This document shows positions 12,906-37,264 of a stretch of 64,000 nt of DNA, in pieces. The DNA is taken from positions 33,673-97,672 of the forward strand of contig JAFZWI010000129.1 of assembly GCA_017617355.1 (NCBI GenBank), read 5' to 3'. Under the pieces are notes generated by a model, which was not told where the DNA came from, did not search any database, and was given only the letters and a program-made list of their open reading frames with translations. Position 1 is the stretch's first letter, and every line of letters begins with the position of its first letter. Source of the stretch: Salinivirgaceae bacterium (lineage in GTDB: Bacteria; Bacteroidota; Bacteroidia; Bacteroidales; SZUA-534). The translations under genes were made by a program, and so were the position numbers.

Positions 12906-12908
12906 TTT

Positions 12909-13562
12909 ATGAAAGTTTTAGTAATAGCACCTCATAATGATGATGAAGTTCTTGGTGTTGGGGGAACAATAGCCAAATATGCCAAAGAAGGGAATGAGGT
13001 CATTATATGTGAAGTAACAGCCGGTGATTTAAAGGATGAAATGGTTCAACAACAGAAAAGGGAGGCACTAGAATCACATAAGATATTGGGGGTTAGTAAG
13101 ACAATATTTATGGATCTTCCTGTTGTGGGATTAAGAGAAATGCGAACAACAGAATTTAATGCCGCATTCTTAAAAACTATATTAGAGATTAATCCTGATA
13201 TAGTTTTTATTCCGCATAAAGGTGATATGCACATCGATCATAGAATGGTTATTGAGGGTGCTATGGTTGCATTAAGGCCGGTTTCTTCCCCAAATGTAAA
13301 GGCCATATATGCTTATGAAACGTTATCTGAAACAGAATGGAATACGCCTTCAGTAGATAATGCATTTATTCCTACAGTTTATTCTGACATTAGTGAATAT
13401 TTTGAATTGAAAATCGAGGCTATGCAGTGTCATAAAAGTCAATTGGTTGAGTATCCACACCCAAGGTCACTTGAGGGAATAAGGGCTTTGGCTATGCATA
13501 GAGGTAGTACTATTTGCAAGAAATATGCAGAGGCATTTATGGCAATACGTGCGGAAATATAG
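12909..13562 (+). CDS. PIG-L/LmbE-family deacetylase
   Basis: VIAPHNDDEVLGVGGT and HKGDMHIDH metal-binding motifs. Confidence 0.8.
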   Translation: MKVLVIAPHNDDEVLGVGGTIAKYAKEGNEVIICEVTAGDLKDEMVQQQKREALESHKILGVSKTIFMDLPVVGLREMRTTEFNAAFLKTILEINPDIVFIPHKGDMHIDHRMVIEGAMVALRPVSSPNVKAIYAYETLSETEWNTPSVDNAFIPTVYSDISEYFELKIEAMQCHKSQLVEYPHPRSLEGIRALAMHRGSTICKKYAEAFMAIRAEI

Positions 13563-18860: not shown

Positions 18861-19691
18861 ATGAATAACATAGAAATTATACATGATGCAGAATTAGATA
18901 CTCTTAATGATGTTATTCGTTCTTTTGAAAAGCATGGAATAAAATATTATTTAGGTTTTGGCACACTTTTGGGTGCGATTCGTCATCAGGGTTTTATTCC
19001 GTGGGATGATGATGTGGATTTATTTATTCCAAGACCTGATTTTGAAAAAATAAAAAGATATGAGAAGGATATAATTCCTCAACCATATATCTTATCAGGT
19101 AATACTATTTCTAATAATTCGCCTCACACGTTTATTTTACGAATCGAAAATCCGTTGAAATGTTTTCATATTGAGAAAAATGGTCGAGTTCTCAAGCAAA
19201 ATGTGTGGTTGGATTTATTCCCGATTGATGGTATGCCATCCAATAGATTATTGAGAATGCTTTTGTTCTTCAGGTTAAGAATACAGTTTGTTTTGTTGAG
19301 AATAGCAAGATCATCACTGTATGGAGTTGCCAAGAATACTAAAAGATCATATGTGGAAAAATGCGTTATTGCTATTAACAAAGTTTTTCATATAGGTCGA
19401 CTCTTCAATTTGAGAAATATCGTAGATGGATTTGACAAAATACTTAAGAAACATTCCTTTGATACGAGCAAATATGTATGTCCATTAACAATTGATTATA
19501 TGGAAAAGTGTATTTGTGACCGAGATTGGTTTGGCGATGGAATTATGATTACTTTTGAAAATATAGAAAAAGTAGTTGTGCCAATTGATAGTGATGCAAT
19601 ACTAAAAAACATATATGGTGATTATAAACAACTCCCTCCAATTGAAAGAAGGCATCCAAAACATAGTATATTAATAAATGAATCCCATTAG
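18861..19691 (+). CDS. LicD family phosphotransferase (tandem paralog)
   Basis: FGTLLGAIRHQGFIPWDDDVDLFIPRPDF and ILKNIYGDYKQLPP. Confidence 0.8.
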   Translation: MNNIEIIHDAELDTLNDVIRSFEKHGIKYYLGFGTLLGAIRHQGFIPWDDDVDLFIPRPDFEKIKRYEKDIIPQPYILSGNTISNNSPHTFILRIENPLKCFHIEKNGRVLKQNVWLDLFPIDGMPSNRLLRMLLFFRLRIQFVLLRIARSSLYGVAKNTKRSYVEKCVIAINKVFHIGRLFNLRNIVDGFDKILKKHSFDTSKYVCPLTIDYMEKCICDRDWFGDGIMITFENIEKVVVPIDSDAILKNIYGDYKQLPPIERRHPKHSILINESH

Positions 19692-21945: not shown

Positions 21946-22011
21946 CTACCACCTAATTCAGTGTTTTAATATCTAAGTATATAATAGATGATTGTTAACC
22001 AGTATTAATTT

Positions 22012-22410
22012 ATGAATTACCACTTAATAGACCTTCAAGTTCACGGTGACCGACGAGGGAAATTAGTCTCGTTGGAAGGTTTGAAAAATGTTCCTTTTGA
22101 AATCAAACGTGTTTACTATATGTTTGATACTCTGCCTAATGAGGCTCGTGGGTTTCATGCTCATAAGGATTTAGAACAGATAATAATCGCTATGGACGGA
22201 GCTTGCCGATTCATACTTGACGATGGCACAAAACGCGAACAAGTGTTGCTCAACCGTCCCGATGTCGGACTTTACATTGGCAAAAATATGTGGAGGGAGA
22301 TGCACGACTTCTCATACGGTTGCAAACTTGTAGTCCTTGCAAGCGAGTATTATAACGAAAATGAATACATCAGGAATTATGACGATTTTTTGAAATTGTT
22401 AAGCAAATGA
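22012..22410 (+). CDS. fdtA: dTDP-4-keto-6-deoxyhexose 3,4-ketoisomerase (FdtA/QdtA, WxcM-like cupin)
   Basis: 132 aa, closely following the FdtA pattern: HGDRRGKLVSLEG, VPFEIKRVYYMFD, RGFHAHKDLEQ and WREMHDFS...VLASEYY. Confidence 0.85.
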   Translation: MNYHLIDLQVHGDRRGKLVSLEGLKNVPFEIKRVYYMFDTLPNEARGFHAHKDLEQIIIAMDGACRFILDDGTKREQVLLNRPDVGLYIGKNMWREMHDFSYGCKLVVLASEYYNENEYIRNYDDFLKLLSK

Positions 22411-23993
22411 ATAATGATAGTCAAATGTGTAATAAGGTAAATTTATTATTGCTATCTTGCGGAACTAACGCTTGTTTTCATATTGCTAAAATTTTAAAAT
22501 TTAAATTTAGTGGTGATTTTTATGTCGTTGGTTGTGACATAAACAAACGATGGCTTATTCCGACATCAGATTATATTGATGCATTTTACCAATGTCCAAT
22601 ATCTTCTGATGAAAACTATTATTCATTTATAATTGATATTTGTAAAAAAGAAAAAATAGATTGGATTTTACCAAGTTTTGATAATGATCAATTTTTGTTT
22701 CCCTGTGACAATCAAGATTTATTGCATTTAGGCATTAAAAGTTTTTCAATTTCTAGTGCTCTTGATTTTTACCGAGATAAAGAATTGACAAATAATTATT
22801 TGGAATCGATTGGCATTCCTGTCCCGAAACATTTTTCAACAGATGAAGTGATTGATGAAACTGATTATTTTATAAAGCCTATTCATGGTGTGGGTTCAAT
22901 TGGAATCTGTCGAAAAAAAGGAAAAGAAATAAAAAAATCAGACAACCCCAATGTTGTCATTCAAGAATTATGTTTTGAGCCGGAATATACTCTGGAATGT
23001 TTTTTATATGATAACAGAATTTATTCAGTTGTAAGGGAAAGAATAGCAAGCAAATCAGGTGTATGTACTAAAACAAGAATCTTTCAAGACAAGTGTTTAG
23101 AAAGTTATGCGTATAAATTAGCATCTAAAACAAGTCTTCCTCATATCTTTAATATGCAGTTTATGAAAAATAGTCTTGGGGAATACGTTTGTACTGATTT
23201 GAATCTTAGAACGGCAGGTGGAATGAGTTTGTCATATACTGCAGGCTGGGACGAAGTTTCATGTCTTGCCAATTTAATGTTGGGAAAGGACGAAAAAAAG
23301 ATTGTTGAAGGTGTTGATAAAACAATATCAGAACAATATATTGTGCGTCATTATGAAGACATTGTTACTAAAAGGGTTAAGAATCATATCGCATTTGATT
23401 TGGACGGCACTTTGCTTGACAGTAGACGTAGGCATGAAATTGTTATGTTAGATGTCTTGGCAAAAAATGGACTTGAAATTGATACGTCAGGTTTAGTCGA
23501 ATTTAAGTCCAATGGCAAGAATAATTTGGATTGGTTGTTAGCCGTTGGGGTAGAAGCGGAAATGGCAAAAAAATATAATTCAGAGTGGATTAATTTAATA
23601 GAAAATCCAAATTATTTGAAAATCGACAGCCTTTTTCCAAATGTGATTGACATTCTTGAACGTCTAAGTGAAGAAAATGACTTGTTCCTTATAACAGCAC
23701 GTAATAATAAAGAGTATGCCATACAACAGATAAAAAATCTTGGTATTTATCAATTTTTTACAGACGTAATTGTGGTTAATGCTTGTAGTGAAACATCTGT
23801 TTTGAAATCTGTTGAACTTAAAAAAAATAAAATTACACATTTCATTGGAGATACAGAATCGGACTACAAGGCGGCAATGATTGCAAATTGCAGGTTTAGT
23901 GCCGTATCGTATGGTTTTAGAAACGAAGTTTTTCTAAAAAAAATAACCAATGAGGTGTACCATAATTTGCAAAATATAATTGATTATGTATAA
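22407..23993 (+). CDS. fusion protein: ATP-grasp ligase domain + HAD-superfamily hydrolase domain
   Basis: N-terminal ~320 aa have YFIKPIHGVGSIGI (ATP-grasp loop). From about aa 326 there is HAD motif I IAFDLDGTLLDS and a later GDTESD motif. ATGA overlap with fdtA. Confidence 0.7.
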   Translation: MNNDSQMCNKVNLLLLSCGTNACFHIAKILKFKFSGDFYVVGCDINKRWLIPTSDYIDAFYQCPISSDENYYSFIIDICKKEKIDWILPSFDNDQFLFPCDNQDLLHLGIKSFSISSALDFYRDKELTNNYLESIGIPVPKHFSTDEVIDETDYFIKPIHGVGSIGICRKKGKEIKKSDNPNVVIQELCFEPEYTLECFLYDNRIYSVVRERIASKSGVCTKTRIFQDKCLESYAYKLASKTSLPHIFNMQFMKNSLGEYVCTDLNLRTAGGMSLSYTAGWDEVSCLANLMLGKDEKKIVEGVDKTISEQYIVRHYEDIVTKRVKNHIAFDLDGTLLDSRRRHEIVMLDVLAKNGLEIDTSGLVEFKSNGKNNLDWLLAVGVEAEMAKKYNSEWINLIENPNYLKIDSLFPNVIDILERLSEENDLFLITARNNKEYAIQQIKNLGIYQFFTDVIVVNACSETSVLKSVELKKNKITHFIGDTESDYKAAMIANCRFSAVSYGFRNEVFLKKITNEVYHNLQNIIDYV

Positions 23994-24022
23994 GATACAA
24001 ATTGTTAAGGATATAATTAGTT

Positions 24023-25123
24023 ATGCAAATACCTTTCCTTTCATTAAAATCCATCACTGAAAAATACTCCGATGAAATTAACGCTGCGGTTTTGAGGGTT
24101 GTAAATTCGGGGTGGTATCTTCAAGGCAACGAAAACAAAAGTTTTGAAGAAAACTATGCAAAATACATTGGAACAGAGCATTGCGTAGGATGCGCCAATG
24201 GTTTGGACGCTTTGATTTGGATACTCAGGGCATACAAGGAATTGGGCGTGATGCAGGACGGCGACGAGGTAATCGTCCCTGCGAACACCTACATCGCTTC
24301 AATCCTTGCAATCACCGAAAACAACCTTAAACCCGTTTTGGTGGAGCCGCGTTTTGACACTTTGGAAATTGATGACAGCCTTATCGAGAGCAAAATCACA
24401 CCGAAGACCAAGGCTATTATGATAGTCCATCTTTACGGTCGTTGTGCTTACACCGATAAAATTGGTGCGCTTTGCAAAAAATTCAATCTCAAACTGATTG
24501 AAGACAATGCTCAGGCACATGGCTGTCGTTTTGACGACAAGCGTACTGGCTCATTAGGCGATGCCGCAGGACATAGTTTCTACCCTGGCAAAAACCTTGG
24601 CGCGTTGGGTGACGGTGGTGCAGTAACTACCAATGACAAGGAGTTGGCGGACACTGTGAGGGCTTTGGCGAATTACGGTTCGCAACAGAAATACGTTTTC
24701 AAATATTGCGGCAGAAATTCTCGCCTTGACGAAATACAGGCGGCAGTTTTGGACGTAAAACTCAAATATCTTGACGGAGACAACGTCAAACGTCAACAGA
24801 TTGCAAAGTATTACTACGATAACATTAACAATCCAAAAATCACTTTGCCAAAACGCATTGACGATAGAAACAACGTCTATCATCTTTTCCCCGTTTTCTG
24901 CGAGCAACGTGATGATTTTCAGCAATATCTGAAAGACCACGACATTCAGACGTTGATTCATTATCCGATTCCACCGCACAAACAAGAGTGTTACAAGGAA
25001 TGGAGCAGCATATCTTTGCCCATTACAGAAAGGATTCACGCTCAGGAACTTAGCCTGCCGATGAGTCCGTGTATGACAATGGAAGAGGCGGAGTACGTTG
25101 TGGAGGTAATAAACAAGTATTAA
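24023..25123 (+). CDS. fdtB: dTDP-3-keto-6-deoxyhexose 3-aminotransferase (FdtB/QdtB-like, DegT family)
   Basis: IPFLSLK start, [36 protein letters not shown] and [12 protein letters not shown] follow the FdtB pattern. Confidence 0.85.
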
Positions 25124-25136
25124 GGAAGAGATTTCA

Positions 25137-26630
25137 ATGTCCGAACAAGGAAACCAAACATCGTCATATCGGAACATTTTTAAAGCGACATCACTGTTTG
25201 GCGGTGTTCAAGCGTATCAAATCCTCATCGGTGTAATAAAATCGAAGTTTATTGCGATTTTGTTGGGACCCGAGGGTATGGGAATCCAAGGTTTGTATCA
25301 GTCAGCAATACATTTGATACAAAGTTTTTCCTCGTTGGGTCTGTCGCAAAGTGCAGTCAGGGATGTTTCTGAGGCCAACGGCAGTGGAGACTCAAAAAGG
25401 ATTGGTCTGACGGTGGTTGTGGTCAAGCGGCTTGTTTGGTTGACTGGATTGCTGGGGCTTGTATTAACGGCAGTTTTTTCGCCGATATTGAGCAAAAGTA
25501 CTTTTGGCAATTACGATTACACGATACCGTTCATAATTCTCTCGGTAATATTGCTTTTAGACCAACTGAGTGCAGGGCAGAGGGTTGTGCTGCAAGGAAT
25601 GAGGAAGTTGAAATCCCTCGCCAAATCCACTGCGATAGGCTCGACGGTCGGCTTGATAGTTTCGGTTCCTCTGTATTACTTGTTTGGTGTGAAAGGCATA
25701 GTCCCGACGCTAATACTCAACTCGTTGACAATGTTAGCATTGACTTGGTATTTTTCAAAAAAAGTTGAAGTTGTAAATGTTCAGGTTACCAACCGCGAAA
25801 CAATTCAGCATGGTAAATCTATGATGAAAATGGGGATAGCAATGAGTGTGAGTGGAATAATGACTACTCTGACCGCTTACGCATTGAGGAGTTATATTCG
25901 CCACGAGAGCGGAGTGGAGCAAGTAGGTTTATTTACAGCTGGTTTCGTTTTGATGAATACATACGTCGGAATGGTTTTCAACGCTATGGCTACAGATTAT
26001 TATCCGCGTTTATCTGCTGTCAATCAGAATAATGAGGAATGTAGACAGGTAATCAATCAGCAAGGCGAAATTGCAACACTGATAATAGCGCCAATTTTGT
26101 TGTCCTGTTTGATTTTGATGCCGTTCATAATAAGGATTATTTATTCAGAAGATTTTTTGCCCGCGACCGACTACATACTTTGGGCGGTCTTAGGAATGAT
26201 GTTTAAGACTTTTTCGTGGGTGATTTCTTTTGTATTTTTGGCGAAAGCCGAGGCGAAACTATTTATGATTAACGAAATAATAAGCAACATCTATTTTTTC
26301 GGTTTTAACATTCTGGCATACCATTTTTGGGGGCTTGCAGGTCTTGGCGTGGCATTTATGGTTTGCTATCTTCTGTATAGTGTCCAAGTCTATTTGATAG
26401 CAAACAAAAAATACCAATTCTCTTTTACAACATCGTTTAAGAAAGTATATGCCGTTCAATTACTGATGGTTACGGCTGGTTTCGTATTAATCTGCCTGTG
26501 TAAATCCAATTGGGTGTATCTTCCTGCGGGGGTGTTGTTTGTAATTAGCGGCCTGTATTCGTTGAAGGAGTTGGATAAGAGGATGAATTATGTGAAAAAG
26601 TGTATTGGAAGGCAATTGAAAAAGAAATGA
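25137..26630 (+). CDS. wzx: Wzx-type polysaccharide flippase (MOP superfamily)
   Basis: 497 aa polytopic protein with the layout typical of polysaccharide biosynthesis (Wzx) proteins. Confidence 0.75.
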   Translation: MSEQGNQTSSYRNIFKATSLFGGVQAYQILIGVIKSKFIAILLGPEGMGIQGLYQSAIHLIQSFSSLGLSQSAVRDVSEANGSGDSKRIGLTVVVVKRLVWLTGLLGLVLTAVFSPILSKSTFGNYDYTIPFIILSVILLLDQLSAGQRVVLQGMRKLKSLAKSTAIGSTVGLIVSVPLYYLFGVKGIVPTLILNSLTMLALTWYFSKKVEVVNVQVTNRETIQHGKSMMKMGIAMSVSGIMTTLTAYALRSYIRHESGVEQVGLFTAGFVLMNTYVGMVFNAMATDYYPRLSAVNQNNEECRQVINQQGEIATLIIAPILLSCLILMPFIIRIIYSEDFLPATDYILWAVLGMMFKTFSWVISFVFLAKAEAKLFMINEIISNIYFFGFNILAYHFWGLAGLGVAFMVCYLLYSVQVYLIANKKYQFSFTTSFKKVYAVQLLMVTAGFVLICLCKSNWVYLPAGVLFVISGLYSLKELDKRMNYVKKCIGRQLKKK

Positions 26631-28507
26631 GAGTGACTGCCTCAAACAGCTTTTGTGACTATAATAATATGCATATTTATAATGGCATTAGGTTGACTTA
26701 TAAAATAATGCCACTTTGTTTGGCATTATTTTTTACCAGGACGGTATTCATTGGCTATAAGTATCTATTTTTAGTAACATTTGTGCCGTGCTTTCTACAT
26801 TCGGTGTATGTACTATTCAAACAAGGTATTGCAAAACCGAAAATCAATACGTTGTTGTTGCCGGTGTTGGTGATTGCGTTATTCATCGCTCATTTCTCAC
26901 CAATAATAAGCAATGTCGTGAAAGAGAGTGTAAATATATCACTGATAATATATTATATTGTTTTCTCAAAATTGTATTATGCTGATGACAAATTCGATGT
27001 GTTCTTGAAATGGATTGTGCGGTTTACTATGCTCGCCGGCTGCATTGCAATTGTACGCTTTGCGTTATCTGAGGTCGGAATTCCATTGCCGTTATCAGTT
27101 ATATTATTTGAGGGTGCAAATTTCTCATTGGTCAATGATTGTAATTTCTATTCATTGTTTTTTATCATATCAATAATTCTATCAGCTAAATTGTTCGCAA
27201 ATGGCCAAATAAAGAAGCCGGAATTCCTAATTGTTAACATTGTATCGGCAATAAACATAGTTACAGGATTGTCTCGACGAGCATATGTGCTCTATGCATT
27301 GATAATAGTTATAATGTTTGTTTGTTTTGTATTAAAAAAATATGATTTCAGAAAGAGCTTGCTGTATAATATTTTGATAGTTAGTATAATAGGAACTCTT
27401 GGCGTTGGTATATTGATTATGTCGAACGGATACTATTCGCCCGAAATGTCGTTTGATCAAAAGTATCGCTATTACAAAGTGTATTCGTTGGTTGATAATG
27501 GGGTATCATATAGTGAGTTTGACATAAAGCAACAAAGGAAATATTATGCAGATAAGATATCGACCGATAGTACAAATTTGTTTTATAATGGCGATTTAAA
27601 GAATGGCCTATCCGCGTGGGGAACACTTCGAACGCCTCACGATTGTATTAGCTTCGAGTTGGTTGAAGATGAGTGTGGTGATAGTATAATTCGTGTTACA
27701 AGAGGGTGTTCAAGTGGTTGTTGGCAGGTCCATTACAATGGTCGTCCGATTGTATATCACAAGGATGTAACTTATGAAATTTCGTTCGCTTATAGAGTTT
27801 TGGAAGGTTCCGAAAATCCATTTTGTGTTGGTTGGCGGGTGAATGAAGGGAAAGGTTGGTGTTATAACCTGCTACGCACGATAGAACCAATTGATAGTGT
27901 TTGGAAGCGTTGCATGGTGGCGTACAAGTTTCAAGAAGACAGGATGAATCCGTATACCTTTTTAAACTCATTGCGAGCGGGTTCCACGATTGAAGTAAAA
28001 GATATTCGAATGACTTGTGATGATACCACAGGACTGCCACATTATGTAGACCAACTGCCAGATAGCGTGATTCATAAATATTATTCGCAAGACACAATTA
28101 ACTATTTCACAGCATCACGTACCGGCCGTTGGCGTTATGCTCTTGAACTTTGGCAGACTCGGTATGATACCAAACAAAAGATTTTCGGACAAGGCTTCAA
28201 GTATTTGGAGTGGTATGGTCAAAAATTTTGGCACAATCCTAAACGTTACGATTTCCCGCATAATCCAATAATATCGTCATTCCTTTATTCCGGAATAATC
28301 GGAGGCATTGTTTATATTATCTTCTTGATAACGTGTTTGTGGCTCTATTGGAAACGCCGAAAGGAATTGGGCGTCTTCTTTATAATGTATCTGTGCTGTA
28401 TGTTCTTCAGTATGTTCAGCGGCAGCAGCCATTTCAGCTTCCCGTTGTTCGCGTTTTTGTCGTTTTTGCCTTTTATTGAGTATAAGAATAGGATGAATCA
28501 CCATTAA
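26627..28507 (+). CDS. WaaL/Wzy_C-type (O-antigen ligase-like) membrane protein with inserted jelly-roll-like domain
   Basis: Polytopic. GQGFKYLEW...PHNPIISSFLYSGIIGG fits the published H-[NSQ]-X9-G-XX-[GTY] ligase motif. A soluble insert (about nt 27572..28025) begins YNGDLKNGLSAWG, like CBM4/9-type modules. ATG 26627 (ATGA overlap with wzx) is preferred over GTG 26600. Confidence 0.65.
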   Translation: MRVTASNSFCDYNNMHIYNGIRLTYKIMPLCLALFFTRTVFIGYKYLFLVTFVPCFLHSVYVLFKQGIAKPKINTLLLPVLVIALFIAHFSPIISNVVKESVNISLIIYYIVFSKLYYADDKFDVFLKWIVRFTMLAGCIAIVRFALSEVGIPLPLSVILFEGANFSLVNDCNFYSLFFIISIILSAKLFANGQIKKPEFLIVNIVSAINIVTGLSRRAYVLYALIIVIMFVCFVLKKYDFRKSLLYNILIVSIIGTLGVGILIMSNGYYSPEMSFDQKYRYYKVYSLVDNGVSYSEFDIKQQRKYYADKISTDSTNLFYNGDLKNGLSAWGTLRTPHDCISFELVEDECGDSIIRVTRGCSSGCWQVHYNGRPIVYHKDVTYEISFAYRVLEGSENPFCVGWRVNEGKGWCYNLLRTIEPIDSVWKRCMVAYKFQEDRMNPYTFLNSLRAGSTIEVKDIRMTCDDTTGLPHYVDQLPDSVIHKYYSQDTINYFTASRTGRWRYALELWQTRYDTKQKIFGQGFKYLEWYGQKFWHNPKRYDFPHNPIISSFLYSGIIGGIVYIIFLITCLWLYWKRRKELGVFFIMYLCCMFFSMFSGSSHFSFPLFAFLSFLPFIEYKNRMNHH

Positions 28508-28521
28508 TCAATAAATGTATG

Positions 28522-28529
28522 TATTTTTG
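28522..28529 (+). promoter_or_regulatory. candidate -7 box (TATTTTTG)
   Basis: Exact TAnnTTTG match about 38 nt upstream of the yraN ATG. Confidence 0.3.
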
Positions 28530-28566
28530 TAATGGTATCATTAAAATGAAAATCTAAAACTTCATA

Positions 28567-28941
28567 ATGCTGACCAGAAAAGAAATAGGTGAAATGGGAG
28601 AAAATGCAGCGGCCACTCTTTTAATTGAAAAAGGCTACAAAATATTGGAGCGCAATTATCGTGTTGGTCATCTTGAGGTGGATATTATTGCACAAAAAGA
28701 TGATACTATTGTATTTATTGAGGTGAAAACACGTTCGGTCAATTGTTTGGTATCGCCACAGGAAGCGGTCAACAATCGCAAACGGAACCTTATTGTCAAT
28801 GCTGCCGATAGCTATATGCGTAATTTTAATCGTACGGAGAACGTCCGTCTTGATGTAATAACAGTCTTTCACCAGTATGGGAAAGTAGTAAGCGTTGAGC
28901 ATATTGCGGATGCGTTCATTCCAGAAGTTAGAACATATTAA
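28567..28941 (+). CDS. yraN: YraN-family endonuclease-like protein (UPF0102)
   Basis: GENAAATLLIEKGYKILERNYRVGHLEVDIIAQKDDTIVFIEVKTRS matches the UPF0102 signature. Confidence 0.85.
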   Translation: MLTRKEIGEMGENAAATLLIEKGYKILERNYRVGHLEVDIIAQKDDTIVFIEVKTRSVNCLVSPQEAVNNRKRNLIVNAADSYMRNFNRTENVRLDVITVFHQYGKVVSVEHIADAFIPEVRTY

Positions 28942-28958
28942 TTGAAAAACTATAAGAT

Positions 28959-30257
28959 ATGAAAACAGTCTATTGCGGTATGAGTGCCGATTTAATTCAC
29001 CACGGGCACTTGAACATCATTCATGAGGCGATGAAACTTGGAGAGGTTACTGTTGGTGTTCTTACCGACGAGGCAATTGCAAGTTATAAAAGACTACCGT
29101 ACCTGACATATGAGCAGCGTGCGGAAATTGTTGCAAACATTAAAGGGGTCGAAAGAGTTGTTCCGCAAACGACTCTGGACTATGTGCCTAACCTTGAAAA
29201 ACTTAAACCTGATTACGTTGTTCACGGTGACGATTGGCTCACGGGTGTTCAGCAGGAAACGCGGCAACTAGTGATAGACTGTATAGCAAAATGGGGCGGC
29301 AAAGTAGTTGATATTCCATACACACCAGGAATTTCTTCAACAGCTCTAAATGCCGAAGTTCGCGAGATTGGTACAACGCCTGAGATCCGTCAGAGAATGC
29401 TAAGACGGCTTATTGCGGCAAAACCGATTGTGCGCATTATGGAAAGCCATTCGGGTTTGACAGGTCTTATCATTGAGAAGACGAAAGTCAAGGTCAACAA
29501 CAAGACCGAAGAGTTTGACGGTATGTGGGCAAGTTCGTTGACAGATTCAACAAGCAAGGGCAAACCCGATATTGAGGCCGTGGATTTGACAACAAGACTT
29601 CACGGTTTGAACGATGCGCTTGAATGCACAACAAAACCAGTGATTTTTGATGGTGATACAGGTGGCAAAATAGAACATTTCGTATTTACAGTCAGAACTT
29701 TGGAACGGTTGGGAGTTTCTGCGGTTATTATTGAGGATAAGGTTGGTTTGAAGAAAAACTCATTATTCGGAACCGATGCGATCCAAACGCAAGATTCAAT
29801 CGAAGGTTTTTCTGAAAAAATCAGAGCGGGAAAAAGAGCACAAATCGCGCAGGATTTTATGATAATTGCCCGTTGCGAGAGCCTTATCGCAGGAAAATCG
29901 GTTGAAGATGCTCTTGAACGTTGCTTCGCATATGTTGAGGCGGGGGCTGATGGCATTATGATTCATAGCAAGAACAAATCTGGCGAGGACATTAAGGAAT
30001 TCTGCCAGAAATTCCGTCAGAAACACACGTCAGTGCCGATTGTGGTAGTGCCTACAACCTACAACCAGATAACCGAAGAAGAACTTGCAAGTTGGGGCGT
30101 GAATGTTGTTATCTACGCAAACCATATGTTGCGTTCGGCATATCCAGCAATGGTGAACACTGCAAAATCAATTCTTACTCACCACCGTTCGCTCGAGGCA
30201 AACGATATGTGTATGAGTGTCAAAGAAATACTTGAACTTATTCCTGGTACAAAATAG
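28959..30257 (+). CDS. pepM: fusion protein: cytidylyltransferase-like domain + phosphoenolpyruvate mutase
   Basis: The N-terminal ~135 aa have the HxGH signature ([15 protein letters not shown]) and HGDDW. The rest aligns by eye along the full length of PEP mutase ([49 protein letters not shown]). Confidence 0.9.
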
Positions 30258-31372
30258 TGGAACAGACGGCAATTTTTTCCGATAAAGGTTACGATGAATT
30301 TGGAAAGCAATTCCTTGACCGCGGCATAAAAAGAATCATTGTTGTCTGCGGTTCGTCTTTCAAGAAACTCTCTGTCGGAAAGTACATAACAGATTTTTTT
30401 GCTGCGAACAATATAGAAATCGTCTTCTTTTCTGATTACCAGCCTAATCCCGATTATGAATCGGTAGTGAAAGGTGTTGATGTATTCAGGAAAAATGAAT
30501 GCGATTCGATTCTTGCTGTGGGCGGAGGAAGTGCAATGGATGTGGCAAAATGCATAAAACTCTATGCAACAATGCCATTGGGTAGCGATTACATCAATCA
30601 GAAAATCGAACCGAACAACATTCCTTTTTTTGCAATTCCGACAACAGCAGGGACAGGTAGCGAGGCAACTCGTTTTGCGGTTATATACTATAAGGGCGCA
30701 AAACAGTCTATTGCGGATTACAGTTGCATTCCGCAGGTTATCTTGTTCGACCCGTCGGTACTTGAAACATTGCCCGATTATCAGCGCAAGGTTACAATGC
30801 TTGACGCTTTTTGCCACGCAGTAGAATCCTTTTGGTCGGTCAATTCGACAGATGAGAGCAAGGCATATTCGAAAGACGCGATAAGGTTGATTCTCAATAA
30901 TATGGGTTCGTATTTGAAAAACGAATACGATGGCAACAGGAATATGCTGATGGCTGCGAACATCGCAGGAAAGGCCATAAACATAACGCAAACAACGGCG
31001 GGACACGCAATGTGCTATAAACTGACATCGCTTTACGGAATCGCCCACGGGCACGCTGCCGCATTGTGCGTCAGTGAGTTATGGCCGTATATGATTGAGA
31101 ATACGGAAAAATGTATCGATAGTCGGGGGGGGAAATATCTTGATTCTGTTTTTGAAGAAATCGCAGAGGCGATGGGAGAGAAGTCCCCAATGGATGCGGC
31201 TGCTAAATTCAAGAATATAGTTGAATCGTTAGGATTGAAGGCGCCAAAAATCAAATCGGAAGGCGATTTTGATGTGCTGAAAAAATCAGTCAATCCGACA
31301 AGATTGAAAAACAATCCAGTCTTTCTTGATGAGGACACTATCGATATGCTATATCATAAAATATTGAAATAA
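30257..31372 (+). CDS. group III iron-containing alcohol dehydrogenase (phosphonoacetaldehyde reductase candidate)
   Basis: GGGSAMDVAKCI, PTTAGTGSE and the His cluster TAGHAMCYKL...AHGHAAAL. GTG start overlaps the pepM TAG stop and there is no nearby in-frame ATG. Confidence 0.75.
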   Translation: MEQTAIFSDKGYDEFGKQFLDRGIKRIIVVCGSSFKKLSVGKYITDFFAANNIEIVFFSDYQPNPDYESVVKGVDVFRKNECDSILAVGGGSAMDVAKCIKLYATMPLGSDYINQKIEPNNIPFFAIPTTAGTGSEATRFAVIYYKGAKQSIADYSCIPQVILFDPSVLETLPDYQRKVTMLDAFCHAVESFWSVNSTDESKAYSKDAIRLILNNMGSYLKNEYDGNRNMLMAANIAGKAINITQTTAGHAMCYKLTSLYGIAHGHAAALCVSELWPYMIENTEKCIDSRGGKYLDSVFEEIAEAMGEKSPMDAAAKFKNIVESLGLKAPKIKSEGDFDVLKKSVNPTRLKNNPVFLDEDTIDMLYHKILK

Positions 31373-31383
31373 AGAAATATAAA

Positions 31384-32499
31384 ATGAAAGTAGAGAATCT
31401 TTTAAATATAATAGGTGCCGATTTTTATACGGGTGTGCCTGACAGCCAGTTGAAGGCATTGTGCAACTGTTTGATGAACAAATATGGCATCGACCCGAAA
31501 CATCATATTATTGCGGCAAACGAGGGTAACTGCACGGCTTTGGCGGCAGGTTATCATCTGGCAACAGGCAAAGTACCCGTTGTTTATATGCAAAATTCTG
31601 GCGAGGGCAACATTATCAACCCCGTGGCGTCGCTGTTGAACGACAAGGTTTATGCTATCCCTGTGGTTTTTGTCATCGGGTGGCGCGGTGAGCCGGGTGT
31701 TCACGATGAGCCGCAACACATTTATCAAGGTGAAGTCACGGTGAAACTGCTTGACGATATGGGTATTCCGTCGTTCATAATTGGCAAAGAGACTACTGAC
31801 GAAGAAGTCGCGAAAGCGATGGAAGATTTCAAAAAGTTGCTTGCTCAAGGCAAGGATGTCGCGTTTGTGGTACGCAAGGGCGGACTCTCTTATGACGGTA
31901 AGGTTGAGTACAAAAATGACAACACAATGCTGCGCGAAGAGATTATCCGTCATATTGTGAATGTGTCAGGTGAGGATCCGATTGTCTCGACAACGGGCAA
32001 GGCTAGCCGCGAACTTTTCGAAATTCGTGAGGCAAACCACCAAAGCCATAAATATGATTTTCTGACGGTTGGTTCTATGGGGCACAGCTCGTCAATTGCG
32101 TTGGGTGTTGCTATCAACAAACCCGACAGGAAAATATGGTGCATTGACGGCGATGGCGCGGTTCTGATGCATATGGGTTCTATGGCCGTAATTGGTGCCA
32201 ATGCGCCTAAAAATCTCGTTCATGTTGTCATCAACAATTCGGCACACGAGACCGTTGGCGGCCAGCCGACAGTTGCGGACAAGATTGATTTAGTTGCCAT
32301 TGCAAAGGCTTGCGGCTATAAGAATGTTGTTTCTGTCGATTCGTTCGAAGCATTAGACAAAGCGCTGCAAGCTGCTAAAAATGCCAACGAATTAAGCCTT
32401 ATAGAAGTCAAGTGCTCAATCGGGGCCCGTGAGGATTTGGGCAGACCGACAACCACAGCAATCGAAAATAAGCAAGGATTTATGGAGTATTTGAGATAA
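31384..32499 (+). CDS. ppd: phosphonopyruvate decarboxylase (TPP-dependent)
   Basis: GVPDSQLK N-terminus and TPP motif IDGDGAVLMHMGSMAVIG...VINNSAHETVGGQ. 371 aa; sits with pepM. Confidence 0.85.
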   Translation: MKVENLLNIIGADFYTGVPDSQLKALCNCLMNKYGIDPKHHIIAANEGNCTALAAGYHLATGKVPVVYMQNSGEGNIINPVASLLNDKVYAIPVVFVIGWRGEPGVHDEPQHIYQGEVTVKLLDDMGIPSFIIGKETTDEEVAKAMEDFKKLLAQGKDVAFVVRKGGLSYDGKVEYKNDNTMLREEIIRHIVNVSGEDPIVSTTGKASRELFEIREANHQSHKYDFLTVGSMGHSSSIALGVAINKPDRKIWCIDGDGAVLMHMGSMAVIGANAPKNLVHVVINNSAHETVGGQPTVADKIDLVAIAKACGYKNVVSVDSFEALDKALQAAKNANELSLIEVKCSIGAREDLGRPTTTAIENKQGFMEYLR

Positions 32500-32630
32500 A
32501 AGAGGAATTTCCGCCTTTATTCATAATACCCATTTGTTCTTTAATAGACACAACGAAAATCAACAAACTACATAATCAAATCCTTCAAACCCTTATCCCC
32601 CCAAAAAACAAGCGATAGCAGCCCTTCCTT

Positions 32631-34124
32631 TTAATGCTTGTGGTAGTTGCGGGTCTGTTCGAATTTAGGCTCGTAAGTTAGAGTTATCCCCAATTTTTTG
32701 AATGTTGATTCATCAACAGAGCTAACCATAACAGTAGCGTGAGCTGTGGAGCCTTTCAGTTTTGGCAGTTGCTGCATCGCTCTCTCTGCCAGCTCGTTAT
32801 GTGCGGCTGATGATGACAGCGCAATCAGAATTTCGTCGGTATGCAGGCGAGGGTTCATACTTCCCAAGTATTCGGTTTTCAACGTTTGAATAGGCTCTAT
32901 TGCAAGTCTCGACACAAGGTTAAACGATTGGTCGATGTTGCCAAGTTCTTTCAATGCGTTCAGCAAGGCTGCGGAGAGCGGGCCGAGCAGGTCGGTTGTC
33001 TTGCCGGTAACAATGGTTCCGTTGGGTAACTCAATGGCTGCAGCGGGGCGTCCGCCAGTGGCTGCCTCTTTTTTGAGCGCCGCGTCAACAACCTTATAAT
33101 CAGTTGGCTTTATGTGCGCTTGATACAACAGCGATTCTAGTTTCGTCAGGTTGTCTTTGCTCTCTCCGTAGCGTTTGCGGTCGCAAAGGCATTTGTAGTA
33201 ACGGCGGATAATCTCGTGTTTCGAGGCCTCTTTGCAGACATCGTCATCAACAATGCAGTAGCCGGCCATATTCACGCCCATATCTGTAGGGCTCTTGTAC
33301 GGACTTTTTCCGTAAATCATTTCAAACGTGGCGTTTAGAACCGAAAACGCTTCCACGTCGCGGTTGTAGTTGACTGTAGTTTCGCCATAGGCCTCAAAGT
33401 GGAACGAGTCGATAATGTTGACGTCGTTAAGGTCGGCGGTGGCAGCCTCGTAAGCAAGATTGACAGGATGTTTCAATGGAATGTTCCAAATAGGGAACGT
33501 CTCAAATTTGGCGTATCCGGCGTTGATGCCGCGTTTGTGCTCGTGGTAAAGCTGCGACAGGCATGTGGCCAGTTTGCCGCTGCCGGGACCAGGAGCAGTC
33601 ACTACAATAAGCGGGCGGCTTGTCTGGATATATTCGTTGCGGCCGTAGCCCTCATCGGAAACAATCAGTCCTATGTTATTTGGGTATCCTTCAATGACAT
33701 AGTGGTGATATGATGCAATACCGAGCGATTTTAGTTTGTTTTCGAAGCGGATAGCCGAGTGCTGTTTGTTGAATTTTGTCAGGCAGACGCTGCCGACAAA
33801 CAATCCAACACTGTTGAATTCGTCAATCAGGCGCAAAACATCCTCGTCATAGGTTATTCCGTAGTCGGCCCGTATCTTGTTGGCTTCAATGTCTTCGGAA
33901 TTAATGGCGATGACAATTTCAATCTTGTCTTTCAGCTTCAAAAGCATCTGCATTTTCGAGTCGGGCTGGAAGCCGGGAAGCACACGCGATGCGTGGTAGT
34001 CGTCGAAGAGTTTTCCACCAATCTCCAGATACAGTTTGTCGCCAAACTCCTTTATGCGCTCCTCAATGTGCGCCGACTGCATGCTCAGATATTTGTCGTT
34101 GTCAAAACCGATTTTTGCGCTCAT
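32631..34124 (-). CDS. DUF1846/UPF0371 family protein
   Basis: MSAKIGFDNDKYL...GGKLFDDYHASRVLPGF start is typical of UPF0371. ATG 34124 is preferred over TTG 34133. Confidence 0.8.
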   Translation of the reverse strand: MSAKIGFDNDKYLSMQSAHIEERIKEFGDKLYLEIGGKLFDDYHASRVLPGFQPDSKMQMLLKLKDKIEIVIAINSEDIEANKIRADYGITYDEDVLRLIDEFNSVGLFVGSVCLTKFNKQHSAIRFENKLKSLGIASYHHYVIEGYPNNIGLIVSDEGYGRNEYIQTSRPLIVVTAPGPGSGKLATCLSQLYHEHKRGINAGYAKFETFPIWNIPLKHPVNLAYEAATADLNDVNIIDSFHFEAYGETTVNYNRDVEAFSVLNATFEMIYGKSPYKSPTDMGVNMAGYCIVDDDVCKEASKHEIIRRYYKCLCDRKRYGESKDNLTKLESLLYQAHIKPTDYKVVDAALKKEAATGGRPAAAIELPNGTIVTGKTTDLLGPLSAALLNALKELGNIDQSFNLVSRLAIEPIQTLKTEYLGSMNPRLHTDEILIALSSSAAHNELAERAMQQLPKLKGSTAHATVMVSSVDESTFKKLGITLTYEPKFEQTRNYHKH

Positions 34125-34232
34125 ATCAATCAAATGTTATTTTTTCGGCTTGTAAAGTTAAAAACACAATTAATATCGAACTCGATAAGCGGGAATAAAA
34201 ATGCGCAATTTGTTCACCGTTTGCCGAGAGAA

Positions 34233-34361
34233 TCAATGATTATTCTCGCATGGGCAAGGAGCGTAGCCTTTATAGTGTTTTTTTTGTGTCGCGCACGATG
34301 CCAATAATAGGCATATTATTAATAATGAATATGTTGCGATTCTTATCCTGTTCGGTTTCAT
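34233..34361 (-). CDS. putative 42-aa lipoprotein, translationally coupled to nth
   Basis: Internal ATG at 34361 gives MKPNRIRIATYSLLIICLLLASC (lipobox-like). ATGA overlap with the nth stop. Confidence 0.35.
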   Translation of the reverse strand: MKPNRIRIATYSLLIICLLLASCATQKKHYKGYAPCPCENNH

Positions 34362-35008
34362 CTTTTCTGATTTTCTTCGAAATATAAGCAAAAATCGTGT
34401 AGTCCGCATTCGGAGCAATGAGGTTTCCGTGCGGTGCAAACATAACGACCGTGCAGTATAAGCCAGTGGTGGGCTATTGGTAGCAGTTCCGGGGCTATGT
34501 GGCTCACAAGTTGTTGCTCTGTGTCTATCGGACGTTTTGCGTTGCTAGTCAAGCCGATGCGTGCCGCCACACGGAACACATGTGTATCGACGGCTAAAGC
34601 CGGTTTGTTGAAAATAACCGACAGAATCACGTTTGCGGTTTTTCGGCCAACGCCGGGAAGTTGCTGTAATTGTTCAATGTCGTCGGGAACAATGCCGTTG
34701 AATTTCTCTGTCAGCATTTTTGCCATTCCCCACAAATGGCTCGCCTTGTTGTTCGGGAACGAGCAACTCTTTATCAACTCGAAAATATCCTCAACCGAAC
34801 CTTGAGCCATAGTCTGCGCGTCAGGATAGCGGGCAAACAGGGCTGGGGTTATCATATTGACACGCTTGTCGGTGCATTGGGCCGAAAGAATTACTGCCAC
34901 CAGCAATTCAAAAGCGTTGGAGTAGTGGAGCTCGGTTTCGGCAGTTGGCATATTGGCCTTGAACCAGCTTATAACGTTGTCATATCGTTCTTCAAGTTTC
35001 ATAGGCAT
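34358..35008 (-). CDS. nth: endonuclease III
   Basis: HhH-GPD motif LPGVGRKTANV and C-terminal FeS cluster Cys ligands (CTARKPHCSECGLHDFC). Confidence 0.9.
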   Translation of the reverse strand: MPMKLEERYDNVISWFKANMPTAETELHYSNAFELLVAVILSAQCTDKRVNMITPALFARYPDAQTMAQGSVEDIFELIKSCSFPNNKASHLWGMAKMLTEKFNGIVPDDIEQLQQLPGVGRKTANVILSVIFNKPALAVDTHVFRVAARIGLTSNAKRPIDTEQQLVSHIAPELLPIAHHWLILHGRYVCTARKPHCSECGLHDFCLYFEENQKR

Positions 35009-35012
35009 ATGG

Positions 35013-36872
35013 TTAGGCGAATTCGCTTAGTTCAATCCAACGGTCAGTTTTCTCGTCAAGAAGGCGCGAAATCTCGTCGAATCGTGCCGATAGTTCGGTG
35101 ATTTTTTTTGCGTCGCTCTCACCGCCCGACAGCGCAGTTCCAATCTCGCTTTTCTCGGTCTCAAGTTGCTCAATATCAGCCTCAAGTTGCTCAAATTCCT
35201 TCTTTTCTTTGAAGGTCATTCGGCGTTTGGCTTCGGGGCGTTCCTTGGTTTTCTGCGGCTGTTCGGGCTTGGCGGCGGCCACTTCGGCTTTGGTCTGTTG
35301 GGTCTTCCACTCGCGGTACTGCGTGTAGTTGCCGGGGAAGTCTTTCACTTTTCCATTTCCCTCAAACACAAACAAATGGTCAACAACCTTGTCCATAAAA
35401 AAGCGGTCGTGCGACACAATCAGCACGCAGCCGTTGTATTTCGACAAAAAATCTTCTAAGACATTGAGTGTCACAATGTCGAGGTCATTTGTTGGCTCGT
35501 CCAAAATTAGGAAATTGGGGTTCCGCATAAGCACAGTCATTAGGTAGAGGCGCTTGCGCTCACCGCCGCTCAGCTTGTTCACGTAGGCGTAGTGCATTGA
35601 GTGCGGAAACAGAAAATAGTTCAGAAATTGAGTGGGCGAGAGGCGCAGACCGTCGCCAACGGCAATGTCCTCGGCCACGTCCTGAATTACCTCAATCACA
35701 CGCTTGTTGGGGTCAAAACGCACTTCTTCCTGACGGTAATAGCCCATTTTTATGGTCGTCCCGATTTCGATTCGGCCGCGGTCGCAGGGCTCGTTGCCCG
35801 TGATGATGTTCAGCAGCGTCGTCTTGCCGATGCCGTTTTGGCCCACCACGCCAATCTTCTCGCCACGGCGGAATTGGTATGTGAAATCGTCGAGCAGCAC
35901 CTTGTCACCAAAACGCTTGTCGATACTGAACAAATCAATGATTTTAGTGCCTAACCGAGAGCCTTTTATGTCGATTCGCATTGACTCGCTCTTGGTGCTT
36001 TTGAAGGCCGTGGCCTTGATGTCTTCGAACGCGTCGATGCGGTATTTGGCCTTGGTTCCGCGCGCCTGCGGCATTCGCCGAATCCATTCAAGTTCTTTCT
36101 TGTAGAGTTGCCGAGCCTTCTCTATCTCGCTGTTCTGGTTATAGATGCGTTCTTCGCGTTTGGACAGGAAATATGAGTAGTTGCCTCGGTATTTGAATAT
36201 TTGTTTGTCGTCGATTTCGTAGATGATGTCGCACACGCGGTCGAGAAAGTAACGGTCGTGCGTTACCATTATCAGCGTCTGTTTCGATGAGTTCAAGAAC
36301 GCTTCGAGCCACTCTATCATATTGAGGTCCAAGTGGTTGGTCGGCTCGTCAAGAATCAGAATGTCGGGCTCGTCAATCAGTGTTTTGGCAAGCGCCAGAC
36401 GCTTTTTCTGTCCGCCCGACAGTTGCCCGACACGTTGCTCGAAGTTGTTGATATTCAGTTGTGAGACAATCTGTTTGATGCGCGATTCGTAGTCCCACGC
36501 TTTGGCGGCGTCCATTGCGCTTGTGGCGTTGGCAAGGCGTTCGGCATTATTGTCGCGGCAGGCCAGTTCGTACTCTTTGATGATTTGCAGTGTGGTGTCT
36601 GATGTTTCGAAAACTTCCTCAAGCACAGTGAGTTCTGTGTTCAGTTGAGGGTCTTGCTCAAGGTATCCAATCCGCAGGTCGTTGCGGACTGTCACGCTGC
36701 CGCTGTCGGGTGTATCGGTGCCTGCCAGAATGCGCAGCAGCGATGTTTTTCCTGCGCCGTTGTTGGCCACAATAGCCACACGCTGCTCTTTCTCAACACT
36801 CAGGCTGATGTTGGTGTAGAGCACATTGTCGCCATACGATTTTGTAATGCCTTCGGCTTGCAGGTAGTTCAT
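35013..36872 (-). CDS. ABC-F family ATPase (two ABC domains, no TM domain)
   Basis: Two Walker A sites (ANNGAGKTS, GQNGIGKTT), two LSGG signatures, and a charged C-terminal coiled-coil tail. Confidence 0.85.
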   Translation of the reverse strand: MNYLQAEGITKSYGDNVLYTNISLSVEKEQRVAIVANNGAGKTSLLRILAGTDTPDSGSVTVRNDLRIGYLEQDPQLNTELTVLEEVFETSDTTLQIIKEYELACRDNNAERLANATSAMDAAKAWDYESRIKQIVSQLNINNFEQRVGQLSGGQKKRLALAKTLIDEPDILILDEPTNHLDLNMIEWLEAFLNSSKQTLIMVTHDRYFLDRVCDIIYEIDDKQIFKYRGNYSYFLSKREERIYNQNSEIEKARQLYKKELEWIRRMPQARGTKAKYRIDAFEDIKATAFKSTKSESMRIDIKGSRLGTKIIDLFSIDKRFGDKVLLDDFTYQFRRGEKIGVVGQNGIGKTTLLNIITGNEPCDRGRIEIGTTIKMGYYRQEEVRFDPNKRVIEVIQDVAEDIAVGDGLRLSPTQFLNYFLFPHSMHYAYVNKLSGGERKRLYLMTVLMRNPNFLILDEPTNDLDIVTLNVLEDFLSKYNGCVLIVSHDRFFMDKVVDHLFVFEGNGKVKDFPGNYTQYREWKTQQTKAEVAAAKPEQPQKTKERPEAKRRMTFKEKKEFEQLEADIEQLETEKSEIGTALSGGESDAKKITELSARFDEISRLLDEKTDRWIELSEFA

Positions 36873-36889
36873 TGGGTGAGCGGCAGCGG

Positions 36890-37264
36890 TTAGCCGAGTA
36901 TCTCTTTCACTTTGTCAACCACTTCGTTGAGGCGCAGTGGCTTCTCAAAGAAGAAATTGGCTCCCATACCCATAACTCGTTCTTTTTCAGTCCTGTCGTT
37001 ATAGGCGCTGACAACCAGAACCGGAATCTGTGCTGTCTCAGGGTTGCTTTTCACAGCCTCAAGCACTTCCTGCCCCGACATTCCGGGCATCATCAAGTCG
37101 AGTAAGATAATGGATATCTTTTTCTTCTTTAATATTTTAAGTGCGTCTTTACCAGTGAAAGCCACTTCAGTTGTAAACCCGTTTTTCTCCAAGACGGTTT
37201 GCAGCAGTAGGTTGTTTGTTGAAGAGTCGTCAACCAACAGAATAGCGGATTTTTCGTCTTTCAT
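36890..37264 (-). CDS. stand-alone response-regulator receiver (CheY-like)
   Basis: LLVDDS, LLDLMMPGMSG and VLVVSA...KP receiver motifs. 124 aa with no output domain. Confidence 0.85.
   Translation of the reverse strand: MKDEKSAILLVDDSSTNNLLLQTVLEKNGFTTEVAFTGKDALKILKKKKISIILLDLMMPGMSGQEVLEAVKSNPETAQIPVLVVSAYNDRTEKERVMGMGANFFFEKPLRLNEVVDKVKEILG

Follow-up and report, generated by a model that had tools for sequence, protein, structure and literature searches.

The 64,000-nucleotide stretch of Salinivirgaceae DNA analyzed here (the window; contig JAFZWI010000129.1 of assembly GCA_017617355.1, positions 33,673 to 97,672) carries at 28959–32499, on the + strand, three intact and closely packed genes that would form a self-contained module for the synthesis of activated 2-hydroxyethylphosphonate (HEP), and we consider it reasonably likely that HEP, once activated with cytidine monophosphate (CMP), is transferred by a LicD-type enzyme to a surface glycan. 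The synthesis of CMP-HEP taken alone is the more secure part of this prediction. In the list of open reading frames (ORFs) of the window, the genes and the two domains of the first gene are laid out as follows:

28959–30257, + strand: gene 1, 432 amino acids (aa), ATG start; cytidylyltransferase-phosphoenolpyruvate (PEP) mutase fusion, predicted to be bifunctional and of the Fom1 type.
28959–29369, + strand: cytidylyltransferase domain of gene 1 (residues ~1–137), with the HxGH motif H14-H15-G16-H17.
29394–30254, + strand: PEP mutase (PepM) domain of gene 1 (residues ~146–432), with the PepM-specific EDKxxxxxNS motif from residue 259.
30257–31372, + strand: gene 2, 371 aa, GTG start; group III Fe/Zn alcohol dehydrogenase (ADH), predicted to be of the PhpC/FomC type.
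31384–32499, + strand: gene 3, 371 aa, ATG start; predicted thiamine pyrophosphate (TPP)-dependent phosphonopyruvate decarboxylase (Ppd/AepY/Fom2 type).

The junction of genes 1 and 2 reads AAATAGTGG, with the GTG of gene 2 overlapping the TAG of gene 1 by 1 nt, and the spacing between genes 2 and 3 is 11 nt; the same arrangement is present in four independent metagenome contigs that encode a YraN protein (the product of the gene just upstream of the cassette) identical to that of the window. An initial annotation, made from the letters and the ORF list, had described three tightly packed + strand genes with overlapping GTG and TAG codons, and both the ORF list and the junction sequence agree with it, as do the translations, in which all the motifs that it quoted are found. 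The three-gene observation is confirmed, and the E-values of the domains lie far outside chance.

Gene 1 combines an N-terminal PF01467 domain (CTP_transf_like, residues 9–129, E = 6e-17) with a C-terminal PF13714 domain (PEP_mutase, residues 148–406, E = 5e-57), as shown by Pfam scans covering 1–38153, where ORFs of 150 aa or more were treated as genes (two nested ORFs on the opposite strand, 16934–17455 and 24554–25177, were left out). Its score of 422.9 bits against the PEP mutase equivalog TIGR02320 passes the cut-off of 319.55. The best Protein Data Bank match of its cytidylyltransferase domain is the cytidylyltransferase (CyTase) domain of Fom1 (5X3D, chain 5x3d_A; 196 bits), to which it aligns without gaps and with 86 of 135 residues identical (64%). 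In Streptomyces fosfomycin biosynthesis the CyTase-PepM fusion is Fom1, whose CyTase domain converts HEP and cytidine triphosphate (CTP) to CMP-HEP, according to the accounts of Cho 2017 given in PMC6697681 and PMC9088020; with a characterized HEP cytidylyltransferase described there, the statement in the initial annotation that the specificity of the fused domain is untested has to be withdrawn. It should be noted that PF01467 fusions make up 23.6% of the non-redundant Ppm enzymes (PMC6697681) and that AepX of B. fragilis, encoded in a 2-aminoethylphosphonate (AEP) cluster, has the same PF01467-PepM architecture (PMC8942020), so that HEP and AEP cannot be told apart by the fusion alone.

Gene 2 has the group III Fe-ADH fold (PF00465, E = 5e-41, and PF25137), with D183, H187, H250, and H264 as metal ligands. 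Homologues up to 93% identical bear the NCBI name "phosphonoacetaldehyde reductase," and so-named homologues are found in metagenome-assembled genomes (MAGs) of Bacteroidales, Lachnospiraceae, Clostridiaceae, and Ruminococcus. In the experimentally validated PhpC of P. fungorum, described in a 2026 study (PMC13576164), the metal ligands are Asp191, His195, His260, and His274, and the predicted HEP-binding residues are a Lys157/Arg349 clamp together with Thr256 and Tyr264 around HEP. Residues K149, D183, H187, T246, H250, Y254, H264, and R349 of gene 2 match this set, and the spacings K-34-D and T-4-H-4-Y-10-H are equal in the two proteins (PMC13576164); the equivalence of R349 to the PhpC Arg is inferred from invariance, not from direct alignment. 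Among 49 cassette-linked ADHs, which go down to ~28% identity to gene 2, K149, D183, T246, H250, Y254, H264, and R349 are invariant, and the position of H187 is occupied by His or Gln.

The Tyr four residues past the second metal His is strictly conserved in PhpC and is Phe in sulfoacetaldehyde reductase (PMC13576164). The closest solved structure to gene 2, 6JKO (129.5 bits), is in fact the sulfoacetaldehyde reductase TauF of Bifidobacterium kashiwanohense (PMC6616044), and it has Phe at Y254 and a gap at R349. TauF shares the fold and the metal site with gene 2 and reduces the isosteric sulfonate aldehyde, but its context is taurine metabolism, whereas gene 2 adjoins both pepM and ppd, a linkage found again in 50 loci from several phyla. 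Taken together, the NCBI-named homologues, the residue set and spacing shared with PhpC, and the differences from 6JKO support the prediction that gene 2 encodes a PhpC/FomC-type phosphonoacetaldehyde reductase. Membership of the PsrA/degradative PhpC subgroup represented by TIGR03405 was ruled out for gene 2 by its score (137.1 versus a cut-off of 423.7 bits).

To place the cassette among its relatives, we compared 87 related loci, 80 of them from species-representative genomes and 7 from metagenome or genome contigs. The genome scan was seeded with a 10-sequence alignment of the fusion, a 30-sequence one (39–60% identity) being too diverse, and the genes of each locus were classed, with a reach of ~9 kb, by BLAST against the window proteins and Pfam-verified references for AEP transaminase (AEPT), PntC, and metallophosphoesterase. 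In 50 loci the partner of the fusion is an Fe-ADH and there is no AEPT, and one of these 50 has a separate PF12804 PntC; in 24 the partner is a class V AEPT, and 20 of these have a separate PF12804 PntC. Three more loci have a metallophosphoesterase and an SDR-epimerase-like gene, and ten are too short to classify (PntC was not counted in either group). ADH and AEPT are mutually exclusive, both being found together in 0 of the 87 loci, and PntC is associated with the AEPT class (Fisher p = 3.5e-13).

The two classes differ in the fused domain itself. Identity to the Fom1 domain is 59–74% in the ADH class and 48–56% in the AEPT class, with disjoint ranges; the cytidylyltransferase domain is 53% identical between classes and 70–72% within a class, whereas the PepM domain shows no class split (70% between, 70–78% within). 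All seven class-discriminating positions lie in the cytidylyltransferase domain and none in PepM. The most informative of them is position 17, the second His of HxGH: all 50 ADH-class fusions and Fom1 have His there, all 24 AEPT-class fusions have Leu or Ile, and all 3 metallophosphoesterase-class fusions have Leu. In the window every one of the seven positions is in its ADH-class state, six of these states being shared by Fom1, and judged by these positions the cassette belongs to the ADH class.

The fusions accordingly come in two types. Type H, with an intact HxGH and Fom1-like, always occurs with an Fe-ADH; type L, with the motif GMIGDIMHPGLINII, in which the second His is changed to Leu or Ile, plus Y43H, L73W, and D74S, occurs either with AEPT and a separate PntC or with a metallophosphoesterase and an SDR gene. 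In the HxGH cytidylyltransferase family (TagD, CCT), both histidines are required for catalysis, and for this reason the type-L fused domain is probably inactive, with PntC activating AEP instead; the window domain is probably of the active Fom1-like type. The split between types H and L, which is not stated in the literature searched, would allow HEP-type and AEP-type clusters to be predicted simply from sequence: annotation at present labels PepM fusions merely "phosphoenolpyruvate mutase," and the H17/Y43/L73-D74 signature would let annotators tell HEP-type from AEP-type fusions.

The initial annotation had also stated that the cassette contains no AEP-type transaminase, and the wider search bears this out. 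No class V aminotransferase (AEPT, PF00266) is found among the Pfam-scanned ORFs or, by tblastn of three AEPT queries, PntC, and PntC-AEPT at E ≤ 1e-3, in all 64 kb; the same two approaches found no PF12804 PntC or LicC-type cytidylyltransferase, stand-alone or fused, in the window, and tblastn detected no metallophosphoesterase homologue in the 64 kb.

The pathway predicted from these assignments has five steps. The C-terminal PEP mutase of gene 1 would convert PEP to phosphonopyruvate, and the gene 3 product would decarboxylate this to phosphonoacetaldehyde, drawing the unfavorable mutase equilibrium forward; against TIGR03297, the equivalog for phosphonopyruvate decarboxylase, gene 3 reaches 475.9 bits (cut-off 312.5, passed), and it has TPP_enzyme_N and TPP_enzyme_C domains in Pfam, and shows the TPP-binding motif GDGAVLMHMG...VVINN in its translation. 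The metal-dependent ADH encoded by gene 2 would then use NAD(P)H to reduce phosphonoacetaldehyde to HEP, and the N-terminal HxGH cytidylyltransferase of gene 1 would join HEP and CTP to give CMP-HEP. Up to this point the route is the one proposed in the initial annotation, and it is supported by the 64% identity to Fom1, the PhpC residues, and the mutual exclusivity of ADH and AEPT in the 87 loci. In the last step, a LicD protein would attach the hydroxyethylphosphonyl group to the repeat unit at a sugar hydroxyl, and the outcome would be a capsule or O-antigen-like polymer bearing HEP esters instead of AEP.

The window comprises parts of two polysaccharide loci (A and B), with the cassette at the end of locus B, and gene 1 provides the sole cytidylyltransferase of locus B detected by Pfam. 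The initial annotation had assigned the transfer to one of three LicD paralogues; three are indeed present, but only two lie in the locus of the cassette and the third is in locus A:

4563–5399, + strand: LicD_a of locus A, with a TagD-like cytidylyltransferase of its own adjacent.
17931–18845, + strand: LicD paralogue b of locus B (PF04991, E = 1e-37), candidate CMP-HEP:glycan phosphonyl transferase.
18861–19691, + strand: LicD paralogue c of locus B (PF04991, E = 6e-39), second candidate transferase.

LicD_a goes with locus A, and the candidate transferases in the window are thus the two locus B genes, either or both of which could act in the last step. The two are only 30% identical to each other. 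The best relatives of LicD b among the fetched loci show 33–36% identity (155–192 bits), and several of them directly adjoin phosphonate cassettes, ADH-class and AEPT-class alike (loci L004, L032, L041, and L069). As to ADH-class cassettes, a LicD gene lies directly upstream in Fibrobacter sp. UWR3, adjoins the cassette in a Paludibacteraceae MAG, and lies directly downstream in several MAGs of rumen Bacteroidales; a Bacteroidales lineage that has been widely sampled shows the order DegT, ATP-grasp, LicD, fusion, Ppd, and ADH. Because the loci in which LicD adjoins the cassette also encode flippases, Wzy, and glycosyltransferases, a glycan is the best-supported fate of the product.

The cassette has the same enzyme set as Fom1/FomC/Fom2 of Streptomyces fosfomycin biosynthesis and the same predicted chemistry up to CMP-HEP, but Fom3 methylase, FomD hydrolase, and Fom4 epoxidase are all absent from the window, and the cassette sits in a Bacteroidales locus for a surface polysaccharide, one with LicD genes, in which CMP-HEP would serve as a decoration donor rather than as a passing intermediate on the way to an antibiotic. 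Like AepX-AepY-AepZ of B. fragilis polysaccharide B and the fetched Prevotellaceae loci, it has a PF01467-PepM fusion, a Ppd, and a capsule locus with LicD, and the PepM domains of the window and the AEPT-type loci are ~70–77% identical. Unlike the AepXYZ type, the window has a PhpC-type ADH in place of the class V transaminase and no PntC, and in the 24 fetched AEPT-class loci, among which B. fragilis AepX is not included, the fused domain reads HxG(L/I), unlike that of the window. By analogy, then, the cassette can be described as a Fom1/FomC/Fom2 front end set in a capsule locus in the fashion of AepXYZ, and as a recognized, widespread cassette type: in the HEP-type (PhpC) neighborhoods of Li et al. 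2022 (PMC8942020), Ppm, Ppd, and a PhpC-like Fe-ADH likewise lead to HEP. The word "rare" in the initial annotation does not apply at the gene level, either to the fusions, with the share of Ppm enzymes given above, or to the HEP-type neighborhoods, which are 8.5% of the ppm neighborhoods in complete genomes (PMC8942020).

The predicted fate also has counterparts. In the Pnt pathway (Rice et al. 2019, PMC6697681), a CMP-activated phosphonate is proposed to be transferred by a LicD-like protein to a cell-surface glycan; unlike PntC, the window enzyme is of the PF01467 HxGH type rather than the LicC-like PF12804 fold, and its predicted substrate is HEP rather than AEP. Of the initial annotation's description of CMP activation followed by LicD-type transfer as published work, the activation is documented, and the transfer has the standing of a proposal (PMC6697681). 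HEP esters on an exopolysaccharide, the same fate as predicted here, are known from the phosphonoglycans of Stackebrandtia and Glycomyces (Yu 2014, as reported in PMC8942020); both are actinomycetes, the only two organisms in which HEP esters on polysaccharides are chemically established, and such esters have been inferred for marine high-molecular-weight organic matter (PMC8942020, PMC13576164, PMC9381506). The literature searched gave only actinomycete glycans and marine organic matter, in keeping with the initial annotation's remark that HEP glycans are undescribed in Bacteroidales. The finding is nevertheless less novel than first claimed, since the fusion, the ADH branch point, and the activation with CMP are all already documented; what remains of interest is the predicted HEP-decorated surface glycans of gut and rumen Bacteroidales, together with the split of the fused domains into types H and L.

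Several observations weigh against the chain from the cassette to a HEP-bearing glycan. Gene 2 is above no NCBIfam equivalog cut-off, and the generic Fe-ADH models score equal to or higher than TIGR03405 (Phn_Fe-ADH; 137.1 bits, cut-off 423.7), and therefore the scores of hidden Markov models (HMMs) alone cannot assign its substrate. The locus B LicD genes lie 9–11 kb upstream of the cassette rather than adjoining it, and relatives of LicD_a and LicD_b stand beside ADH-type and AEPT-type cassettes alike, with similarities that do not separate the classes. Because yraN intervenes and the borders of the cassette match those of a horizontally shared segment, the functional link between cassette and locus B rests on strand, spacing, and analogy. 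In the literature searched, no HEP product of Bacteroidales has been characterized and LicD-catalyzed transfer of a phosphonate has not been demonstrated. Finally, since the view is limited to 64 kb of the genome, an AEP transaminase, a HEP-modifying enzyme, or another consumer of CMP-HEP could be encoded elsewhere. If a transaminase outside the window were to make AEP from the phosphonoacetaldehyde of the cassette, the glycan would carry AEP, as polysaccharide B of B. fragilis does, leaving the ADH as a side activity or a sink for detoxification. The PF01467-PepM fusion in the AEP cluster of B. fragilis (PMC8942020) and the restriction of the visible sequence to 64 kb speak for this reading, but no AEPT is found within ~9 kb in any of the 50 ADH-class loci and no ADH in any of the 24 AEPT loci, and the window has neither the Leu or Ile at the second HxGH His that marks the AEPT loci nor the separate PntC present in 20 of the 24. 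We regard it as improbable.

It is also unlikely, in our estimate, that CMP-HEP is made only in passing and is processed before it is attached or released, whether by methylation, by hydroxylation to 1,2-dihydroxyethylphosphonate, or by cleavage to methyl- or hydroxymethylphosphonate, so that the final decoration or product is something other than HEP. The actinomycete phosphonoglycans reportedly also hold a dihydroxyethylphosphonate, which counts for such processing, as do the methylation by Fom3 and subsequent hydrolysis of the CMP-HEP made by Streptomyces Fom1 and the role of HEP as a precursor of methylphosphonate. (The last two points are from PMC9088020 and PMC9381506, respectively.) On the other hand, Pfam finds in the window no HEP-tailoring enzyme of the radical-SAM/B12 methylase, cupin HEPD/MpnS-like, or 2-oxoglutarate oxygenase kind; the soluble protein encoded at 5448–6779, which has no Pfam family, has no match in the Protein Data Bank at E ≤ 0.1; and the module keeps its three-gene form where it recurs next to LicD genes, without a fourth tailoring gene that is constant. 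A phosphonolipid head group or a free small phosphonate, made by a cassette that stands beside locus B only by horizontal transfer, would fit the homology to the Salinivirgaceae relative described below, which ends exactly at the module borders, as well as the housekeeping-type yraN between cassette and glycan genes and the many ADH-class loci of marine Gammaproteobacteria that show no LicD within ~9 kb at the BLAST threshold used. We give this account little credence, given that the cassette and locus B lie on the same strand, separated by gaps of 59 nt and 17 nt around yraN, that the cassette is the last unit before a convergent gene, that the module in other phyla sits among flippase, Wzy, glycosyltransferase, and LicD genes, and that no gene for lipid synthesis, such as one for CDP-alcohol phosphatidyltransferase, is present in the window.

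Should the HEP-glycan pathway be correct, this bacterium and many rumen and gut anaerobes with the same module would wear a HEP-bearing polysaccharide coat. The carbon-phosphorus ester would resist phosphatases and phosphodiesterases; charge, immune recognition, or phage recognition could differ from those conferred by AEP or phosphocholine; the glycan would be both a sink and a source of reduced phosphorus in the gut; and the HEP apparently targeted by dedicated catabolic clusters would have a concrete producer (PMC13576164). As a speculation that we entertain without yet favoring it, HEP decoration may be common in gut and rumen Bacteroidales, Fibrobacter, and Treponema and predictable from an intact-HxGH, Fom1-like fusion, the HxG-Leu/Ile domain of AEP clusters being a degenerate relic with activation left to PntC, and HEP-glycans may be the source that feeds the HEP-catabolic clusters of rumen and plant-biomass bacteria.

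The cassette appears to be exchangeable as a block:

28939–32490, + strand: exchangeable three-gene module, a single blastn block to a Salinivirgaceae MAG (GCA_017650325.1; locus L001).

This one alignment (3554 columns, 91.8% DNA identity) begins just past the yraN stop and stops at the gene 3 stop, with unrelated flanks. The order fusion-ADH-Ppd is shared with Fibrobacter sp. UWR3 and a Paludibacteraceae MAG; fusion-Ppd-ADH is the commoner order among the related loci. ADH-class cassettes are also carried by cultured organisms, among them Fibrobacter sp. UWR3 (L004), Treponema sp. C6A8 (L014), Olivibacter ginsenosidimutans JCM 18200 (L025), and Xanthomonas chitinilytica H13-6 (L060). The fusion protein is unusually well conserved, at 93–94% identity to Treponema and Fibrobacter versions (L002, L004, and L014), and the ADH in those loci is only 56–64% identical to gene 2. 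Because the DNA identity of these fusions is only 72–79%, the comparison indicates strong purifying selection on the fusion and not very recent transfer. In the Treponema loci L002, L003, and L014, the fusion (93–94% identical) and the ADH have no adjoining Ppd; either Ppd is encoded elsewhere in these organisms or their pathway must differ. L001 holds two PepM fusions in one locus (at 1–3781 and 9980–13517). One belongs to a fusion-ADH-Ppd cassette 98% identical to that of the window; behind the other, which shows 69% identity, come Ppd, a metallophosphoesterase, and an SDR epimerase-like gene, and ADH and AEPT are both missing. This metallophosphoesterase/SDR type of cassette is also found in L030, L042, and L059.

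Locus B, the presumed pathway of the acceptor glycan, was read from Pfam, the gene calls on an identical contig (L088), and hydropathy, and yraN separates it from the cassette:

8059–28507, + strand: locus B, ~20 genes, in the order UpxY/NusG-like (8059), DegT, initiating sugar transferase, formyltransferase, PIG-L, GT2; MBL-fold, ATP-grasp, SDR, two LicD, Wzy-like protein with eight transmembrane segments, GT2; FdtA, ATP-grasp-HAD fusion, DegT, flippase, 635-aa membrane protein.
21990–22400, + strand: FdtA-like (3,4-ketoisomerase) gene, below the 150-aa ORF filter and called on the identical contig.
28567–28941, + strand: yraN (UPF0102; PF02021), 59 nt after locus B and 17 nt before gene 1.

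The FdtA-like gene precedes a region (22407–25123, +) encoding the ATP-grasp-HAD fusion and a DegT aminotransferase, and a trio of DegT, ATP-grasp, and LicD genes recurs beside ADH-class cassettes of other lineages (L004–L007). On the basis of these genes and the recurring trio, the acceptor glycan is suggested to contain an N-acylated 3-amino-3,6-dideoxyhexose. The yraN gene and the cassette are probably transcribed together. A motif resembling TAnnTTTG, TATTTTTG, is found ~35 nt 5' of the yraN ATG and, going by its sequence, might be a promoter; terminator-like matches in 26000–34500 were at the level of shuffled sequence in a sigma-70 promoter/terminator scan, a tool whose scope does not include Bacteroidota promoters.

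Locus A, which ends near 7899, contains what may be a CDP-type decoration module of its own (2121–5399, including LicD_a), perhaps a CDP-amino-alcohol (serinol-like) pathway:

2121–3179, + strand: aminotransferase, HisC/CobD-like.
3176–4510, + strand: TagD-like cytidylyltransferase fused to a GFO/Idh/MocA oxidoreductase.

Two Prevotellaceae/Prevotella MAGs (L044 and L070) have homologues of the TagD-like fusion (66–69% identity) in the vicinity of AEP cassettes. The Pfam-less soluble protein of locus A mentioned above (5448–6779, +) is 443 aa long, and its best match in the Protein Data Bank has E = 0.31.

Downstream of the cassette there is a convergent DUF1846 gene, followed by housekeeping genes. 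The nearest named relative of the DUF1846 neighbor is in a Paludibacteraceae MAG (85% identity), in keeping with an origin in Bacteroidales. In a relative with a 95%-identical DUF1846 (L092–L094, compared with 32631–37000), the flank of response regulator, ABC-F, Nth, and DUF1846 genes is kept, and a Y_Y_Y/SpoIIE regulator and a GH10 xylanase are found in place of the capsule locus and the cassette. Because both are absent from the equivalent site in this relative, the whole polysaccharide region is, as judged from this comparison, strain- or species-variable.

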